Source of the DNA: a virus
Taxonomy: Duplodnaviria; Heunggongvirae; Uroviricota; Caudoviricetes
IMG/VR virus record: IMGVR_UViG_3300010279_000132
Span: 1 to 4,418 of that record
Strand: one strand, 5' to 3'
DNA length: 4,418 bases
Shown one piece after another: positions 1 to 4,418 of this stretch (within the stretch, counting starts at the first letter, position 1; the number at the start of each line of letters is the position of its first letter). A model generated the notes under the pieces. The model saw nothing but the letters and a program-made list of their open reading frames with translations. It searched no databases and was not told the DNA's origin. Both the position numbers and the translations under genes were made by a program.

Positions 1-341
1 GTCAGCCAGTCAGCGCCAGTCATGCGCTTTTCTGCATCGCCATTAGTCCACTTAACCGGTACACCAATAGCCTTCATCGCGATTTCTATTTCCCCGGCAA
101 TGGCGCTTTTTCCGCAACCAGTAAAACCAGAAACAACGACAAGAACTTCGCCTTTGGCTGGTTTTATTTCCCGTGCTTCCAGTTCTGCAATACGCTTTTT
201 GTCTGCTTCCCGTTCATCCAGTAGTGCCAGCACAATCGATGGTGTTACCAGCTCATGGAAAAGGTCCGCGTCAAATCCCCAGTCGTCATGCATTGCCTGA
301 TCTGCCGCTTCACGCAGTGCCTGGTAATTAATTTCGCTCAC
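1..341 (-). CDS. P-loop NTPase, N-terminal 113 codons only; gene continues beyond the window start
   Basis: Minus-strand frame opens with GTG at 341-339, preceded by AGGAGG (348-353) with a 6-nt spacer, and stays open to position 1. Translation VSEINYQALREAADQAMHDDWGFDADLFHELVTPSIVLALLDEREADKKRIAELEAREIKPAKGEVLVVVSGFTGCGKSAIAGEIEIAMKAIGVPVKWTNGDAEKRMTGADWL. A hydrophobic strand (LVVV) followed by GFTGCGKS fits the Walker A pattern GxxxxGK[ST]. Absent from the ORF track, presumably because it is truncated by the window edge. Family not identified. Confidence 0.55.
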   Translation of the reverse strand, partial: MSEINYQALREAADQAMHDDWGFDADLFHELVTPSIVLALLDEREADKKRIAELEAREIKPAKGEVLVVVSGFTGCGKSAIAGEIEIAMKAIGVPVKWTNGDAEKRMTGADWL

Positions 342-582
342 TGGTTGCCTCCTGTTTTTCTGCCTTCAACACCATGCGAGAACCATCATCCAGCTCCCAC
401 GCGATCTCACCACCTTCAGCCATGACCAGTCGCCACACCAATTGAGCAGCCTCATTGGTAACATCACGACCTGGATCATTGCCAACGCGCATACGTCCAC
501 CTTCAACATCGCGCATTTTTGCCAGCATGATAGTTTTTGATAGCGGTGAAAAACCAAGCTGTAGTCGTGCTGAATTACTCAC
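328..582 (-). CDS. hypothetical protein, 84 aa, GTG start
   Basis: ORF-track frame 328..582. GTG start at 582-580 overlaps the TGA stop of the upstream gene (GTGA) and is preceded by AGGAGG with a 6-nt spacer. Its last 14 nt overlap the start of the next gene. No recognisable motif. Confidence 0.55.
   Translation of the reverse strand: MSNSARLQLGFSPLSKTIMLAKMRDVEGGRMRVGNDPGRDVTNEAAQLVWRLVMAEGGEIAWELDDGSRMVLKAEKQEATSERN
337..353. repeat. 17-nt direct repeat, copy 1 (translation-initiation region of the P-loop NTPase gene)
   Basis: Plus-strand CTCACTGGTTGCCTCCT at 337-353 is identical to 578-594. On the minus strand it reads AGGAGGCAACCAGTGAG, i.e. SD + spacer + GTG start + AG. Confidence 0.9.
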
Positions 583-594
583 TGGTTGCCTCCT
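578..594. repeat. 17-nt direct repeat, copy 2 (translation-initiation region of the 84-aa gene)
   Basis: Identical 17-mer CTCACTGGTTGCCTCCT, 241 nt from copy 1. Flanking bases differ on both sides. Confidence 0.9.
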
Positions 595-1052
595 TTGCGA
601 AGCTGGGCGGCGAACTCGTTAAGTGATATGTAGCAATCTCCAAATGTTAACGAACCGCTCGACTGCATATGCTCCATAGCCATCTCCACGCCCTGCGCAC
701 GTACTTCAGCCAGGAAAGCATCGGTGGCTGGGGTTTTGATTTCGTTAAGCGCATCACTGAATCCACCACGCTCCATACCTAGCTCTGCTTCGTAATCGGC
801 ATCGAATGCAGCGTCTTTGCAGAACTTCTTCATCCCCGAACTCTCCGCTGCCAGCGCCGCGCACTTGGCCTCAAGGTTATCAATCGTGATTCCAGCAGAA
901 CGACACTCCCGCAACGCAGCTTCTAGTTTTGATTCAAGTTCACCGAACTTACGGACAAGATATTCAGCGTTTGTTTCGTTAACCTTTAAATCTCGTGGGA
1001 TGCATTTACCTTTCAGAAATCCATCCATCTCAATTAGTGTCATTTGTTTCAT
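579..1052 (-). CDS. hypothetical protein, 157 aa
   Basis: ORF-track frame 579..1052 ([16 protein letters not shown]...). ATG at 1052-1050 overlaps the TGA stop of the upstream small gene (ATGA). Protein-like composition, no stops, no recognised domain. Confidence 0.7.
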
Positions 1053-1213
1053 TTTTTCCCACTCTGCAACATCGCATTCAGATATTTGTTTTGATTTACT
1101 GACGGAAAAGAATTTCTCTTAAGCAATTCCTCTCTCGATGGCATTGGCTTTACGCGTTGGCGAATAATCATTTCTGCCGGAAGAATGCCGGGATTGTATG
1201 CAAGTCCTCTCAT
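1049..1213 (-). CDS. small hypothetical protein, 54 aa
   Basis: ATG at 1213-1211 preceded by TGAGGA with a 7-nt spacer, directly after the stop of the 98-aa gene. Translation [54 protein letters not shown]. It is the 3' part of the 105-aa ORF-track entry 1049..1366, whose 5' part overlaps the 98-aa gene out of frame. Confidence 0.45.
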
Positions 1214-1223
1214 GATAAATTCC

Positions 1224-1520
1224 TCAGTCATTACTGATAGCGCCATAACGAGAGCGATAATTACGCAGGCGCGGGTCGATATATTCAGGGAAGTGGGTAT
1301 ATGTGGCTTTGCGGAATGGTCGGATTGATGTCTGGTAAATTCTCTCTCGTTCTTCTTTCTCTGCAAGCCATATACAGTGGCGAAATTCCTTTTCCTCTTT
1401 CGTTTCCTGCGGTAGAGACATTATCCGGTCGTAGTTTCTTCTGAATTTATCCAGCACCTCCGATACGGAATTGCCGGAACAGCGGCGCGCGTCATCCGCA
1501 CCATACAGAGGCGCTGGCAT
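1224..1520 (-). CDS. hypothetical protein, 98 aa
   Basis: ORF-track frame 1224..1520. ATG at 1520-1518 preceded by AGGAG with a 6-nt spacer, 13 nt after the ssb stop. No recognised domain. Confidence 0.6.
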
Positions 1521-1533
1521 GATTTTCTCCTGA

Positions 1534-2040
1534 TTAAATTGCGTGAATAGCGTGACGAGGGAAGGGGAGAGTTACTGGTGCAAAGGGTATATCGTCGTCA
1601 AAATCCATCGGAGGTTCGTTGTGTTGTGCTGGTGATGATTGCTGCTGTGGCTTCTGTGATTGCCTGCTGGCTGCTTGTTGTTTGCTGTCGCCAATGCCGC
1701 CAAGCATTTGCATCACGCCATTAATTCCGACATGAACCTCGGTTGTGTAACGGTCTTGCCCTGACTGGTCTTTCCACTTTCTGGTTCTCAGCATTCCCTC
1801 GAAATAAATCTGATCACCTTTTTTCACATACTGCCCAACGACCTCAGCCAGTTTCCCGGATACAGCAACACGATGCCATTCAGTCAATTCCTTTTGCTCG
1901 CCAGTATTTTTATCTCGCCATTGTTCTGACGTGGCTATTGTCAGGTTAGCGAACGCTGTTCCTGATGGTGAGTATCGAACTTCCGGGTCTTGTCCTACCC
2001 GACCAAGGATAATCACCTTATTTACGCCTCTGCTTGCCAT
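1534..2040 (-). CDS. ssb: single-stranded DNA-binding protein (SSB), phage-encoded
   Basis: 168-aa product [23 protein letters not shown]...TEWHRV...[19 protein letters not shown]...[13 protein letters not shown] closely parallels E. coli SSB as I recall it: OB-fold N-terminal domain, Gly/Gln-rich linker and acidic DDDIPF motif. ATG abuts the TAA of the upstream recombinase gene (TAAATG). The frame continues 15 codons past DDDIPF (see findings). Confidence 0.93.
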
Positions 2041-2748
2041 TTATGCCACCTGTTTTAGTTCGTTAACTCTGATGTTCACTATCTGAACGCATTTAGCCTG
2101 CTCCTCCTCGTTGCCAGCCATTAATTGCCAGTCACGCTGATAACGCTCGATGAGTTTTTTCTTGTCAGTTTCTGTTGACGCATAATCGCTGAAGTCTTTC
2201 AGGATTTGTTCGCAGTCAACCGATGGAGATTTCTGGTTGGTATCTTCTGGTGATGGTTTGTTATCTGATGCTGGGATTGCCCATCCCGGAAGCGATGGAG
2301 GGAGCCAGTAAAATCCTGTTCCATCCTTCAGTTTTGCCCTGTGCCACCCCTGCTTTTTATCGAGAGATGTTTGTGCGAAACCTTCCTCAAGGTTATACAG
2401 ATACCGACCGATTCCCCACTGAACGGCAGCGCGCTTCATTGCACCGGAACGACCACCTTTGACGGCTTCTACCTGTGTGTTTTCAGCAGCATCCCATTTG
2501 GTTACCCATTCGGAATCAATCTTTATTGATATGCCGCATTCAACGCCGCCGTTGTTGGGAATATCGCGGTATTCATTGCGCCATCCTGCTTTGCCGCAAA
2601 CATCGTCCAGGCGTTTCATGATTGCCCGGTTCGTGACATAAGCCAGCACCATAGCCCACACCTTGCCATCGCGTGTTTTACCGCTTTGCTGTATTCGCCA
2701 TTCGATATCTTCAGGGCTGAATGGCTCATCGAATTTGTTCAAATCCAT
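2041..2748 (-). CDS. Rad52/Rad22-family single-strand annealing protein (Sak-like phage recombinase)
   Basis: 235-aa product. Segments YVTNRAIMKRLDDVCGKAGWRNE and AMKRAAVQWGIGRYLYN resemble conserved blocks of the Rad52 N-terminal DNA-annealing domain as I recall them (Y..R.I..L...FG..GW and KRAL..FGN). RBS GAGGTG with a 4-nt spacer before ATG at 2748. Sits directly upstream of ssb, a typical phage recombination module. Confidence 0.8.
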   Translation of the reverse strand: MDLNKFDEPFSPEDIEWRIQQSGKTRDGKVWAMVLAYVTNRAIMKRLDDVCGKAGWRNEYRDIPNNGGVECGISIKIDSEWVTKWDAAENTQVEAVKGGRSGAMKRAAVQWGIGRYLYNLEEGFAQTSLDKKQGWHRAKLKDGTGFYWLPPSLPGWAIPASDNKPSPEDTNQKSPSVDCEQILKDFSDYASTETDKKKLIERYQRDWQLMAGNEEEQAKCVQIVNIRVNELKQVA

Positions 2749-2756
2749 AATTCACC

Positions 2757-2927
2757 TCAGAATGGACATGGCCCAAGGAAATAACGCTGGTTTAATACTT
2801 CGACTCGGGACAAATTAAGGCATACCCGCATTCCTTCGCGGTCGCCATTATGGCGATACCAGAGAGCTTTCTGCGTGTACATGCGTCTCTGTAACTTGCT
2901 CTCCTTCACTGTGGTTGCAAGTGACAT
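2757..2927 (-). CDS. small hypothetical basic protein, 56 aa (candidate)
   Basis: ATG at 2927-2925 preceded by AAGGAG with a 6-nt spacer; stop TGA at 2759-2757, 8 nt before the recombinase ATG. Translation MSLATTVKESKLQRRMYTQKALWYRHNGDREGMRVCLNLSRVEVLNQRYFLGPCPF. Overlaps the 52-aa candidate by 80 nt in another frame; too short for the ORF track. Confidence 0.4.
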   Translation of the reverse strand: MSLATTVKESKLQRRMYTQKALWYRHNGDREGMRVCLNLSRVEVLNQRYFLGPCPF

Positions 2928-3006
2928 GAATATCTCCTTCGTTATCGATTAAATCTTTCATCTGACGAATGAATTCTTCGTCTGACCAGTTATCTGTAAA
3001 ACTCAT
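2848..3006 (-). CDS. small hypothetical acidic protein, 52 aa (candidate)
   Basis: ATG at 3006-3004 overlaps the TGA stop of the kil-like gene (ATGA). Translation MSFTDNWSDEEFIRQMKDLIDNEGDIHVTCNHSEGEQVTETHVHAESSLVSP; stop TAA at 2850-2848. No properly spaced SD, so it would depend on translational coupling. Confidence 0.35.
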   Translation of the reverse strand: MSFTDNWSDEEFIRQMKDLIDNEGDIHVTCNHSEGEQVTETHVHAESSLVSP

Positions 3007-3155
3007 TTCCTGCGATACCACGGAAGGTTGATAGCTGATTTCATCGCTTTATTTGCTTCAAGCCACATTTTTGAATCACCAATAAATCTGGCTATTACTG
3101 CTTTGTTCTGTGCAGCTCGAAGCATCTTGTGATTGATGGCTATTTCATTGCGCAT
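3003..3155 (-). CDS. kil: Kil-like small protein (putative host cell-division inhibitor), 50 aa
   Basis: ATG at 3155-3153 preceded by GAGGT with a 6-nt spacer. Translation MRNEIAINHKMLRAAQNKAVIARFIGDSKMWLEANKAMKSAINLPWYRRK. Sits immediately 3' of cIII, as kil does in lambda, and is of similar size. The FIGD-containing segment matches my uncertain recollection of lambda Kil; the call rests mainly on synteny. Confidence 0.5.
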   Translation of the reverse strand: MRNEIAINHKMLRAAQNKAVIARFIGDSKMWLEANKAMKSAINLPWYRRK

Positions 3156-3271
3156 AATAAGACCTCAACTCTTTTCCATCCGTCACGTAATTTACGGGTG
3201 ATTCGTTCAAGTAAAGATTCATTTAATTGGAAGGCACCCATGCGAGCGCCTCCCGCGATTGCGTAAATCAT
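3140..3271 (-). CDS. cIII: CIII-family protein (inhibitor of host FtsH/HflB protease), 43 aa
   Basis: ATG at 3271-3269 preceded by AGGAA with a 6-nt spacer. Translation MIYAIAGGARMGAFQLNESLLERITRKLRDGWKRVEVLLCAMK. The stretch ESLLERITRKLRDGWKR matches the conserved central helix of lambda CIII as I recall it, and the N-terminus MIYAIAG parallels lambda MQYAIAG. Too short for the ORF track. Confidence 0.8.
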   Translation of the reverse strand: MIYAIAGGARMGAFQLNESLLERITRKLRDGWKRVEVLLCAMK

Positions 3272-3295
3272 GGGTGGTTCCTTATGTTGGTTTTA

Positions 3296-4264
3296 TTAGT
3301 AGGTTATTTTTGTTGCGAATACTTCGCCTTTTACGATGGCTGTTATGATATTTTTAGCAACATCTTCTGATGCGCCAACCTTGATAAGGTCAGCAAGTAT
3401 TTTGTTATTTACTTCTTTCCGGTGAGCTTTATCCTTTGCTCTACGCTCTTCTTCGTCCTTGATTCTTTTTTCTTCTGCTATTCTGGCTTGCTCTTTTGCT
3501 TCAGCCTCGCGCCGGATTCGTTCAGCCTCCTCCTGTGCTTTTCGGCGTTCTGCTTCAATTGCCGCATGCTTTTCTCTTTCAGCTCGTTCTGCTGCCTCTT
3601 TTGCTTCGCGCTGTGCTCGTTGCTCGGCTTCAATGCGTTCACGCTCTGCACGTTCCGCTGCGGCCTTAGCTTCTGCTTCTCGCCTTGCTGCTGCTTCAAT
3701 TTCGGCTTTTGCCTTTGCTTCGGCTTCTGCTCTGGCTTTCTCTTCAGCTTCTCTTTTTAAGCGTTCTTCATGCTCTCGCTTTTCCTGCTCCGCTTTGAGT
3801 CTTGCCTCTTCTCTTTGGCGGTCAAATTCGCGATCCATCAAAATCGCTATTTCATGGTCAGACTCAATTTGCTTTGCGAGAGCTTCAGCTGCTGCCTTAG
3901 CTTCTTCTTCGGCTTTAATCCGCGCCTGTTCTTCCTCATAATCAGTAAGAGGCTGGCGTGCCTTGGCTTTCAGCTCATCAAGGCGATCACGCACTGTCTT
4001 GCGGTTGGCATCAATTAGCTTTGGAATTTCCTTCAGTTCAGCAACAAGGTCTTTGCCAACACCATCGAGATATGTTTTCGTCTGCGCAACTTTATACGCC
4101 AGAGAAGCGATCTCCTTTCTGCCCTTTGCCGTTGTGATATCAGGCACAAAGGACATAACTTCACGTTCAACCTTTTGAAGGATTTCTTCAATCTGGTCGG
4201 CAGACTGAAATACAGTCATTGCATTTGCTTTTTCAATAACAACTAATTCTGTTACTTCACTCAT
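3296..4264 (-). CDS. hypothetical protein, 322 aa, with a long E/R/K/A-rich charged helical (coiled-coil or single-alpha-helix-like) central segment
   Basis: ORF-track frame 3296..4318. I place the start at the ATG at 4264-4262 (MSEVTELVVIEK...), which has GGAGG (4273-4269) 4 nt upstream; the track's upstream ATG at 4318 has no RBS and would span the terminator hairpin. N-terminal about 130 aa look globular, the middle about 140 aa are E/A/K/R-rich, and the last about 35 aa (NKILADLIKVGASEDVAKNIITAIVKGEVFATKITY) are hydrophobic/amphipathic. No transmembrane segment apparent. Confidence 0.85.
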   Translation of the reverse strand: MSEVTELVVIEKANAMTVFQSADQIEEILQKVEREVMSFVPDITTAKGRKEIASLAYKVAQTKTYLDGVGKDLVAELKEIPKLIDANRKTVRDRLDELKAKARQPLTDYEEEQARIKAEEEAKAAAEALAKQIESDHEIAILMDREFDRQREEARLKAEQEKREHEERLKREAEEKARAEAEAKAKAEIEAAARREAEAKAAAERAERERIEAEQRAQREAKEAAERAEREKHAAIEAERRKAQEEAERIRREAEAKEQARIAEEKRIKDEEERRAKDKAHRKEVNNKILADLIKVGASEDVAKNIITAIVKGEVFATKITY

Positions 4265-4276
4265 ATATCCTCCATC

Positions 4277-4303
4277 AAAAAAATTGCCCTCACATTGGAG
4301 GGC
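4277..4303 (-). terminator. candidate rho-independent terminator (tL1-like) on the minus strand
   Basis: On the minus strand: GCCCUC-CAAUGU-GAGGGC (6-bp stem with 5 G:C pairs, 6-nt loop; plus 4286-4303) followed by AA and seven U (plus 4277-4285). The RBS of the next gene begins 3 nt after the U-run. Confidence 0.55.
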
Positions 4304-4342
4304 AAAGAAGATTTCCAATAATCAGAACAAGTCGGCTCCTGT

Positions 4343-4418
4343 TTAGTTACGAGCGACATTGCTCCGTGTATTCACTCGTTGGAATGAATACACAGTGCAG
4401 TGTTTATTCTGTTGTTTA
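4343..4418 (-). other. possible 3' end of a minus-strand ORF entering from beyond the window (24 codons then TAA at 4345-4343)
   Basis: One minus frame is open from the window edge: KQQNKHCTVYSFQRVNTRSNVARN*. Too short to distinguish from chance. If real, it would be the gene preceding the terminator, the position the N gene occupies in lambda. Confidence 0.2.
4366..4393. repeat. perfect 9-bp inverted repeat with a 10-nt spacer
   Basis: GTGTATTCA (4366-4374) ... TGAATACAC (4385-4393), spacer CTCGTTGGAA. Lies upstream, in transcription sense, of the terminator and the first gene. Function unknown. Confidence 0.6.

Follow-up and report, generated by a model that had tools for sequence, protein, structure and literature searches.

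The small genes lying between the recombination genes and xis/int of lambdoid phages have been described in P22 and in lambda. In phage P22 (NC_002371), abc2, orf56 and eaE come directly after the recombination genes and are oriented towards xis and int, and Abc2 is also paired with a DUF2737 protein in phage HK97. The structure of P22 Abc2 on RecBCD has been solved by cryo-electron microscopy (PDB 8B1T/8B1U). This protein prevents the activation of RecBCD at Chi and represents one of the four known types of anti-RecBCD protein (PMC12315714), and its Pro68 engages the host protein PpiB (PMC9836394). In phage lambda, the exo-xis region (orf60a, orf63, orf61, ea22 and ea8.5) modulates the lysis-lysogeny decision according to the literature. 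Lambdoid 'Rec modules' made of an annealing protein, a single-stranded DNA-binding protein (SSB), an exonuclease and an anti-RecBCD protein have been catalogued (PMC12315714), and the mosaicism of these phages has been modelled on short conserved boundary sequences (Clark et al. 2001; Susskind and Botstein 1978, as cited in PMC3029335). Here we analyzed a stretch of 4,418 nucleotides (nt), positions 1 to 4,418 of the IMG/VR virus record IMGVR_UViG_3300010279_000132 (Caudoviricetes), referred to below as the window, and in particular a block of four tightly packed genes at positions 328 to 1520 which an earlier reading of the bare sequence (the sequence-only reading) had proposed as a place to look for an undescribed accessory system. 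Our results indicate that the block is very probably the distal part of the early-left operon of a lambdoid/P22-like Escherichia coli prophage, and not a dedicated four-gene system.

The four genes of the block, in the order of transcription and with the length of their products in amino acids (aa), are as follows.

1224..1520, minus strand: abc2, anti-RecBCD protein 2, 98 aa (PF11043, PHROG 656, PDB 8B1T/8B1U)
1049..1213, minus strand: DUF2737 gene, 54 aa, ATG start (PF10930, PHROG 1117), homologue of P22 orf56 and HK97 gp38
579..1052, minus strand: gene of a 157-aa mosaic helical/coiled-coil protein, partly EaE-like (PHROG 614)
328..582, minus strand: DUF7446 gene, 84 aa, GTG start, a sporadic single-gene cassette (PF24233, PHROG 1578)

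The block resembles the P22 locus in that the genes succeed one another in the same order right after the recombination genes and point towards xis and int. Its Abc2 is highly similar to that of P22 from end to end, the 54-aa protein is 75% identical to the product of orf56, which directly follows abc2 in P22, and EaE shares with the 157-aa protein a core of 62 aa (47% identity, aa 60-121 only). The two loci differ in that P22 carries Erf, Arf and Abc1 where the window carries a Rad52-type recombinase and an SSB, in that the N-terminus and the tail of EaE are unlike those of the 157-aa protein, and in that P22 has no DUF7446 and continues with orf45, eaF and eaD instead of an Ea22-like gene. 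The lambda exo-xis region occupies the same place in the pL operon, between the recombination genes on one side and ea22, xis and int on the other, and likewise consists of small, non-essential, early-expressed genes. The comparison with the lambda ea/b region made in the sequence-only reading thus holds for the accessory (ea) part of the early-left operon, but the lambda counterpart is the exo-xis region just upstream of ea22, and not the b region. None of the four proteins is homologous to those of orf60a, orf63 or orf61, and the Ea22-like protein encoded further downstream has a C-terminal domain unlike that of lambda Ea22. Finally, the run of Rad52-type annealing protein, SSB and Abc2 corresponds to a described type of Rec module, although DUF2737, found here at the end of Abc2-type as well as RecT-type modules, is absent from the catalogue of PMC12315714.

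Results

Genomic context and gene layout

Megablast searches assigned the window to the early-left region of lambdoid/P22-like phages and of E. coli prophages, parts of it being recovered in 461 phage records and in 2,911 of 5,426 complete E. coli genomes. All sizeable genes of the window are carried by the minus strand. In near-identical prophages the annotated order in the direction of transcription is N, a coiled-coil protein, cIII, kil, a small open reading frame (ORF), a Rad52/Rad22-family recombinase, ssb, a 'phage anti-RecBCD protein', DUF2737, hypothetical or Ead/Ea22-like genes, xis and int; kil, cIII and Rad52 are supported by Pfam in the window itself. The Rad52-type recombinase gene and ssb lie immediately upstream of abc2 in the pL operon, a position that abc2 also has in P22.

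Each of the four ORFs matched a protein family with E values from 1e-18 to 1e-60 (Pfam, or PHROG for the 157-aa ORF), and none of them is therefore a chance ORF. Their tight packing was confirmed, with gaps of 10-13 nt and overlaps of 4-14 nt. The start of abc2 (1520) is separated by 13 nt from the stop of ssb (1534), and the DUF2737 start (1213) by 10 nt from the abc2 stop (1224), which is overlapped by a GAGGA motif. The DUF2737 gene and the 157-aa gene meet in ATGA, and the 157-aa gene and DUF7446 in GTGA, each time overlapping by 4 nt, while the end of DUF7446 (stop at 328-330) overlaps the ea22-like gene (GTG start at 341) by 14 nt. For the DUF2737 gene, the mechanical ORF list gives a TTG-started version of 105 aa instead of the 54-aa protein retained here. 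No terminator-like or promoter-like site was found on the coding strand between 328 and 1520, which is consistent with co-transcription. Co-expression of these co-oriented, tightly packed genes, already suggested from the sequence alone, is very probable.

The four genes occur independently across genomes

The presence of each gene was counted in the 5,426 complete E. coli genomes at a coverage of at least 80%.

Abc2: 1,085 of 5,426 genomes
DUF2737: 1,252 of 5,426 genomes
157-aa gene: full length in 40 of 5,426 genomes, pieces in 1,303
DUF7446: 167 of 5,426 genomes
Whole four-gene block: 3 of 5,426 genomes

The block as a unit was equally scarce in phages, since none of 50,697 phage records covered 80% of it. 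Even where contigs encode an identical 157-aa protein, the next gene was Ea22-like, DUF7446 or DUF7739, and extra genes (exonuclease, DUF5405) were present upstream. Gene neighbourhoods were further inspected in IMG/VR samples consisting of the best 80 matches each. Among the 80 DUF7446 loci, the gene just upstream encoded DUF2737 in 37 cases, a 157-aa-like protein in 16 and another product in 27, and all four genes were contiguous in a single locus, where the third protein was 55% identical. A 157-aa-like gene followed in about 50 of the 79 loci of the Abc2 sample, and DUF7446 in 3. No Rad52, SSB, Abc2 or DUF2737 was detected in the available upstream flank (up to ~4 kb) of 26 of the 80 DUF7446 loci. 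The DUF7446 gene was also found on plasmids of ~110 kb (47 places in the E. coli collection), where its neighbours are Ead/Ea22-like and DUF551 genes and where Abc2 and DUF2737 are absent from the surroundings; one such plasmid is NZ_CP022085.2 from E. coli O104:H4 (109,945 bp). The four genes thus occur independently across genomes and not as a unit, which contradicts the shared function that had been suggested as possible for them.

Some points weigh against our reading of the block. The IMG/VR samples, being made of best matches, are biased towards close relatives. The order of the region (recombination module, DUF2737, EaE-like, Ea22-like) is conserved, and some positional or functional constraint is possible. 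In addition, DUF2737 came after Abc2 in every sampled Abc2 locus, and the two could form a functional pair instead of being merely linked. Searches for a defence or toxin-antitoxin function gave no match to the PADLOC-DB defence-system models (best E values of 0.03-0.05 at ~11 bits, with no consistent system), and NCBIfam returned only noise for all five proteins, the Ea22-like product included.

A 17-nt joint brackets the DUF7446 gene

Two copies of a 17-nt sequence, AGGAGGCAACCAGTGAG, were found at the ends of the DUF7446 gene.

578..594, minus strand: upstream copy of the joint, where the 157-aa gene ends (last codons and stop) and DUF7446 begins (Shine-Dalgarno sequence and GTG start)
337..353, minus strand: downstream copy of the joint, located within the 3' end of DUF7446 and supplying the ea22-like gene with its Shine-Dalgarno sequence and GTG start

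These copies form a perfect direct repeat, of which 0 would be expected by chance, and enclose the DUF7446 gene precisely. The pair flanks DUF7446 in 58 related loci. In the five examined loci without DUF7446 (L001, L002, L085, L087 and L088), the joint was single and located at the corresponding junction. The genes found after the joint over the whole set of fetched loci were DUF7446, a 99-aa ORF (DUF7739 in L088), dozens of Ead/Ea22-like alleles of 60-340 aa, and others. Those found before it were DUF2737 variants (ending in WRKGGNQ), EaE-like proteins (ending in LRKGGNQ) and DUF7446.

Such a promiscuous joint at gene boundaries is what the boundary-sequence model predicts. As with the lambdoid boundary sequences, the joint sits exactly at gene boundaries, is common to unrelated flanking genes and brackets an optional cassette. 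Unlike plain boundary sequences, it also serves as a ribosome-binding site with a start codon, and the needs of translation may by themselves account for its conservation. The genes are tightly coupled because the 3' end of each one contains the ribosome-binding site and start codon of the next; this coupling stems from the joints and from the compaction of the operon, and is not evidence of a common function.

The first gene encodes an Abc2 homologue

The 98-aa protein matched PF11043 along its whole length (201.9 bits for a cut-off of 25, E = 1.4e-60; residues 1-98 on model positions 1-97) as well as PHROG 656, 'abc2 anti-RecBCD' (E = 5e-56). It aligned end to end with P22 Abc2, with few substitutions (PDB 8B1T chain A, E = 4.5e-55), and Pro68 is conserved, within an I-R-P motif at residues 66-68 as counted from the translation. 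By these sequence criteria the protein is Abc2, a RecBCD modifier with known biochemistry and structure, and its identity with the P22 protein implies that this copy would also bind RecC and alter the response of RecBCD to Chi. The sequence-only reading had recognized no motif in the four proteins and held their function to be unknown. The latter still applies to the other three, although they belong to the DUF2737, PHROG 614 (EaE-like) and DUF7446 families, but not to the first one.

DUF2737 lies at the end of two types of recombination modules

The 54-aa protein was assigned to PF10930 (108 bits for a cut-off of 25, E = 2e-31). This is a small family of 138 clusters; among the 120 members listed, the named ones come from Escherichia, Shigella and Salmonella and none bears a functional name. 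In the literature, DUF2737 received one incidental mention, and no title or abstract indicated a functional study of P22 orf56.

In the Abc2 sample, DUF2737 followed Abc2 in all 78 IMG/VR loci with a downstream flank, either directly, at a distance of 14 nt, or past one DUF5405 gene, and about 9 loci retained only the C-terminal half of DUF2737. Conversely, 19 of the 54 DUF2737 loci present in the DUF7446 sample had no Abc2, and there DUF2737 ended a RecT-type recombination module. In several of these modules (L005, L006, L010, L032-L039 and others), a RecT-like protein of 300 aa was followed by proteins of 162 aa and 104 aa, with or without DUF5405, before DUF2737. DUF2737 almost always ends the recombination module, irrespective of the recombinase type.

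One explanation of the block alternative to ours is that Abc2 and DUF2737 are a functional pair, in which DUF2737 would be an accessory of the recombination/anti-RecBCD module with a role like that of P22 Abc1 or Arf, the two other genes being unrelated cargo. The constant adjacency in the Abc2 sample favours this explanation, as does the same pairing in P22 and HK97; moreover, the window has no abc1 and arf homologues, and recombination in P22 requires additional uncharacterised small proteins (PMC9836394). On the other hand, the 19 loci in which DUF2737 follows a RecT-type module weaken a strict dependency between the two, DUF2737 is present in more E. coli genomes than Abc2, the truncated copies lack half of the protein, adjacency in a sample of low diversity may reflect plain linkage, and the literature reports no function. 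Taking both sides together, we consider a functional pair unlikely, although it is the alternative that survives best, and an accessory role of DUF2737 in the recombination module may be put forward only as a guess of low confidence.

A bolder proposal, to which we give slightly less credit still, makes DUF2737 (P22 orf56, HK97 gp38) a small protein so far overlooked as a nearly universal part of the recombination modules of enterobacterial lambdoid phages, both those of the Rad52/SSB/Abc2 type and those of the RecT type. It might then act on RecBCD, on SSB or on the annealing protein, like the uncharacterised Abc1 and Arf of P22. As a separate part of the same proposal, the hypervariable tip of the 157-aa protein, described below, and DUF7446 could be specificity elements directed at host targets or against defence.

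The 157-aa protein is a mosaic with a hypervariable segment

The 157-aa protein matched PHROG 614 (E = 5e-60), with partial matches to PHROGs 14548, 492, 368 and 583, and no Pfam family at E values up to 0.1. Its relatives form more than 7,800 clusters, and no functional name appeared among the 120 best relatives listed. In the family alignment the N-terminus is conserved, the coiled coil varies in length through insertions and deletions, and a conserved core containing KKFC is followed by a hypervariable stretch of 25-45 aa and by a conserved tail ending in LRKGGNQ. This stretch, which lies between a RAQGVEM motif and the tail and is encoded in the C-terminal part of the gene (579-700), is wholly different from protein to protein, though the relatives are otherwise 80-97% identical. 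This pattern looks like that of a swapped or diversifying specificity segment.

PHROG 368 resembles Ea22-like proteins in its N-terminal part; the 157-aa protein matches this PHROG by its C-terminal part only, and BLASTP gave no alignment with lambda Ea22. The possibility that the protein is an Ea22 paralogue was rejected, as it has no similarity to lambda Ea22 or to the neighbouring Ea22-like protein and no match to Ead_Ea22 (PF13935). It forms part of the broad population that includes the EaE and Ead/Ea22 accessory proteins. The AlphaFold model is all-helical with a predicted local distance difference test (pLDDT) score of 51, and was left out of the fold search because of this score; searching the PDB with the sequence gave no relatives, and its profile returned only weak matches to coiled coils. 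By analogy with Ea22, one may guess with low confidence that the protein is an oligomeric coiled-coil adaptor, the variable tip of which would bind a host or phage partner.

The prophages with an identical 157-aa protein (L085-L090) adjoin a pectinesterase gene (PF01095) and an aconitase-family gene, and their integrase is of the lambda type (356 aa). These surroundings presumably resemble the neighbourhood of the lambda attB site (ybhC).

DUF7446 is a narrow family with a confident structural model

The 84-aa protein matched PF24233 with 67.1 bits (cut-off 24.1, E = 1.3e-18; residues 7-79 on model positions 2-70 of 70) and PHROG 1578, and its relatives are named DUF7446 at NCBI. The family is very narrow: it comprises 375 clusters when grouped at 90% identity, and at 50% identity only 39 representatives were present in a collection of 1.84 billion proteins. 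Its named members are mainly from Enterobacteriaceae, one being from Hafnia, and DUF7446 is not mentioned in the literature. The AlphaFold model is confident (pLDDT 88) and has a beta-beta-beta-alpha-beta-beta order, and comparing this fold with the PDB gave no significant match. Nor did the 84-aa and 54-aa sequences, or a profile, retrieve any relatives from the PDB.

Single-stranded-DNA binders of the PC4/Sub1 type recur among the weak hits, which is a lead and not a finding. It raises the alternative that DUF7446 is a small nucleic-acid binder (PC4/Sub1/YdbC-like, for single-stranded DNA) that would aid recombination or replication. We find this improbable, more so than the two proposals concerning DUF2737: the order of strands and helix is unlike that of PC4, the profile searches of the PDB were empty, and the gene is present in only 3 of the 79 Abc2 loci, none of Rad52, SSB, Abc2 or DUF2737 being detected in the available upstream flank (up to ~4 kb) at 26 of its own 80 loci.

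The gene at the start of the window is an ea22 homologue

Downstream of the block, the window starts with a truncated gene that had been taken for a P-loop NTPase.

1..341, minus strand: 5' part of an ea22-like gene, 113 codons, GTG start at 341, ending at the window edge (Pfam Ead_Ea22)

Its product matched Ead_Ea22 (PF13935) with 50.3 bits (cut-off 27, E = 5e-13). A complete relative in L005 (4242-4667) encodes a protein of 141 aa which is 99% identical across the shared part; the first 51 aa of this protein are 84% identical to lambda Ea22, and Ead_Ea22 is its sole Pfam match. A Walker-A-like motif, GFTGCGKS, is indeed present at residues 72-79 of the fragment and satisfies GxxxxGK[ST], but all matches of the fragment to P-loop families fell below cut-off (APS_kinase, 15.3 bits versus 21.1; AAA_16, 14 versus 32.6). 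In the 141-aa protein, the motif is borne by the ~80 residues that follow the coiled coil, which is too short for a normal P-loop domain, and this tail matches only PHROGs of unknown function. On these matches we assign the presumed NTPase as an allele or homologue of Ea22.

Other features of the window

Upstream of the block, the recombination module contains two further genes.

2041..2748, minus strand: Rad52/Rad22-family single-strand annealing recombinase (Pfam PF04098, E = 5e-26; same annotation in near-identical E. coli prophages), the beginning of the phage recombination module
1534..2040, minus strand: ssb, single-stranded DNA-binding protein of the recombination module (annotated so in near-identical prophages; PF00436 on the same gene in L085-L089)

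Two small ORFs of the minus strand, which overlap each other, lie in the interval from kil to the Rad52 gene; they encode 57 aa (2848-3021) and 56 aa (2757-2927), and neither has a Pfam family. The acidic 57-aa ORF is annotated as a hypothetical protein in relatives and sits where P22 has arf. Further upstream, a 322-aa protein (3296-4264, minus strand), whose relatives are annotated as 'TolA' or 'coiled-coil domain-containing', is rich in E, A, K and R over a long repeat region, which corresponds to in-frame DNA repeats at 3466-3910, and matches no Pfam family. The mechanical TTG start of this gene at 4318 is probably wrong, as the ATG at 4264 has a GGAGG site and fits the annotated gene of 969 nt in relatives. 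A terminator-like hairpin with an 8-bp stem and a T-run (4284-4305, minus strand) is located just upstream of this start, within the antiterminated pL transcript. A 22-nt inverted repeat close to the right edge of the window (4356-4403) is 82% complementary with a 4-nt loop and has no Rfam match. An Rfam search of the whole window found no RNA family, and its composition profile showed nothing distinctive.

Discussion

The identities of the genes, their operon context, their independent distribution and the promiscuous repeat make up the case for reading the block as the distal part of an early-left operon. All four genes belong to catalogued families with near-identical copies in hundreds of genomes, and the block is an ordinary mosaic of known cassettes. 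In such an operon, transcription from pL, antiterminated by N, would run from right to left through the coiled-coil gene, cIII, kil, the Rad52-type recombinase gene, ssb, abc2, the DUF2737 gene, the EaE-like gene, DUF7446 and the ea22-like gene. Abc2 would complete the recombination module by binding RecC of the host RecBCD, with PpiB engaged at Pro68, as expected from its homology to the P22 protein. By blocking the response to Chi, it would cause resected ends to be passed to the phage annealing protein and SSB, and not to RecA. Translation of each gene is probably coupled to that of the preceding one, and cassettes such as DUF7446 may be inserted, deleted or swapped through homologous recombination between copies of the joint.

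That the four genes, perhaps together with the presumed NTPase, serve a shared function as a single accessory system not described before is the least probable explanation and we give it almost no credit: they do share a strand, overlapping or nearly overlapping stops and starts, the lack of an internal terminator and, in a few genomes, the same five-gene order, but the first gene has homology to a phage protein of defined function, Abc2, a known member of recombination modules, the presumed NTPase is an Ea22 allele, no PADLOC model matched, and the genes are scattered independently, the whole block being found in 3 genomes against 40 to 1,252 for the single genes, with differing neighbours even around identical copies of the 157-aa protein and with DUF7446 usually lacking the 157-aa gene and often Abc2 or DUF2737, the ~110-kb plasmids included.

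Reading the block as part of the early-left operon removes a false lead, in that genes of a phage early operon cannot be taken for a functional system on the ground of their tight packing, and it corrects two annotations, the first ORF of presumed unknown function becoming Abc2 and the NTPase an Ea22 allele. A modest lead comes from DUF2737, which almost constantly occupies the last place in two types of recombination modules, and this makes the small protein a cheap candidate for studies of the control of RecBCD by phages. Lastly, the 17-nt joint provides a clean example of a boundary sequence that brackets an optional cassette and joins many different ones, and supports the view that lambdoid phages owe some of their mosaicism to recombination at conserved joints.

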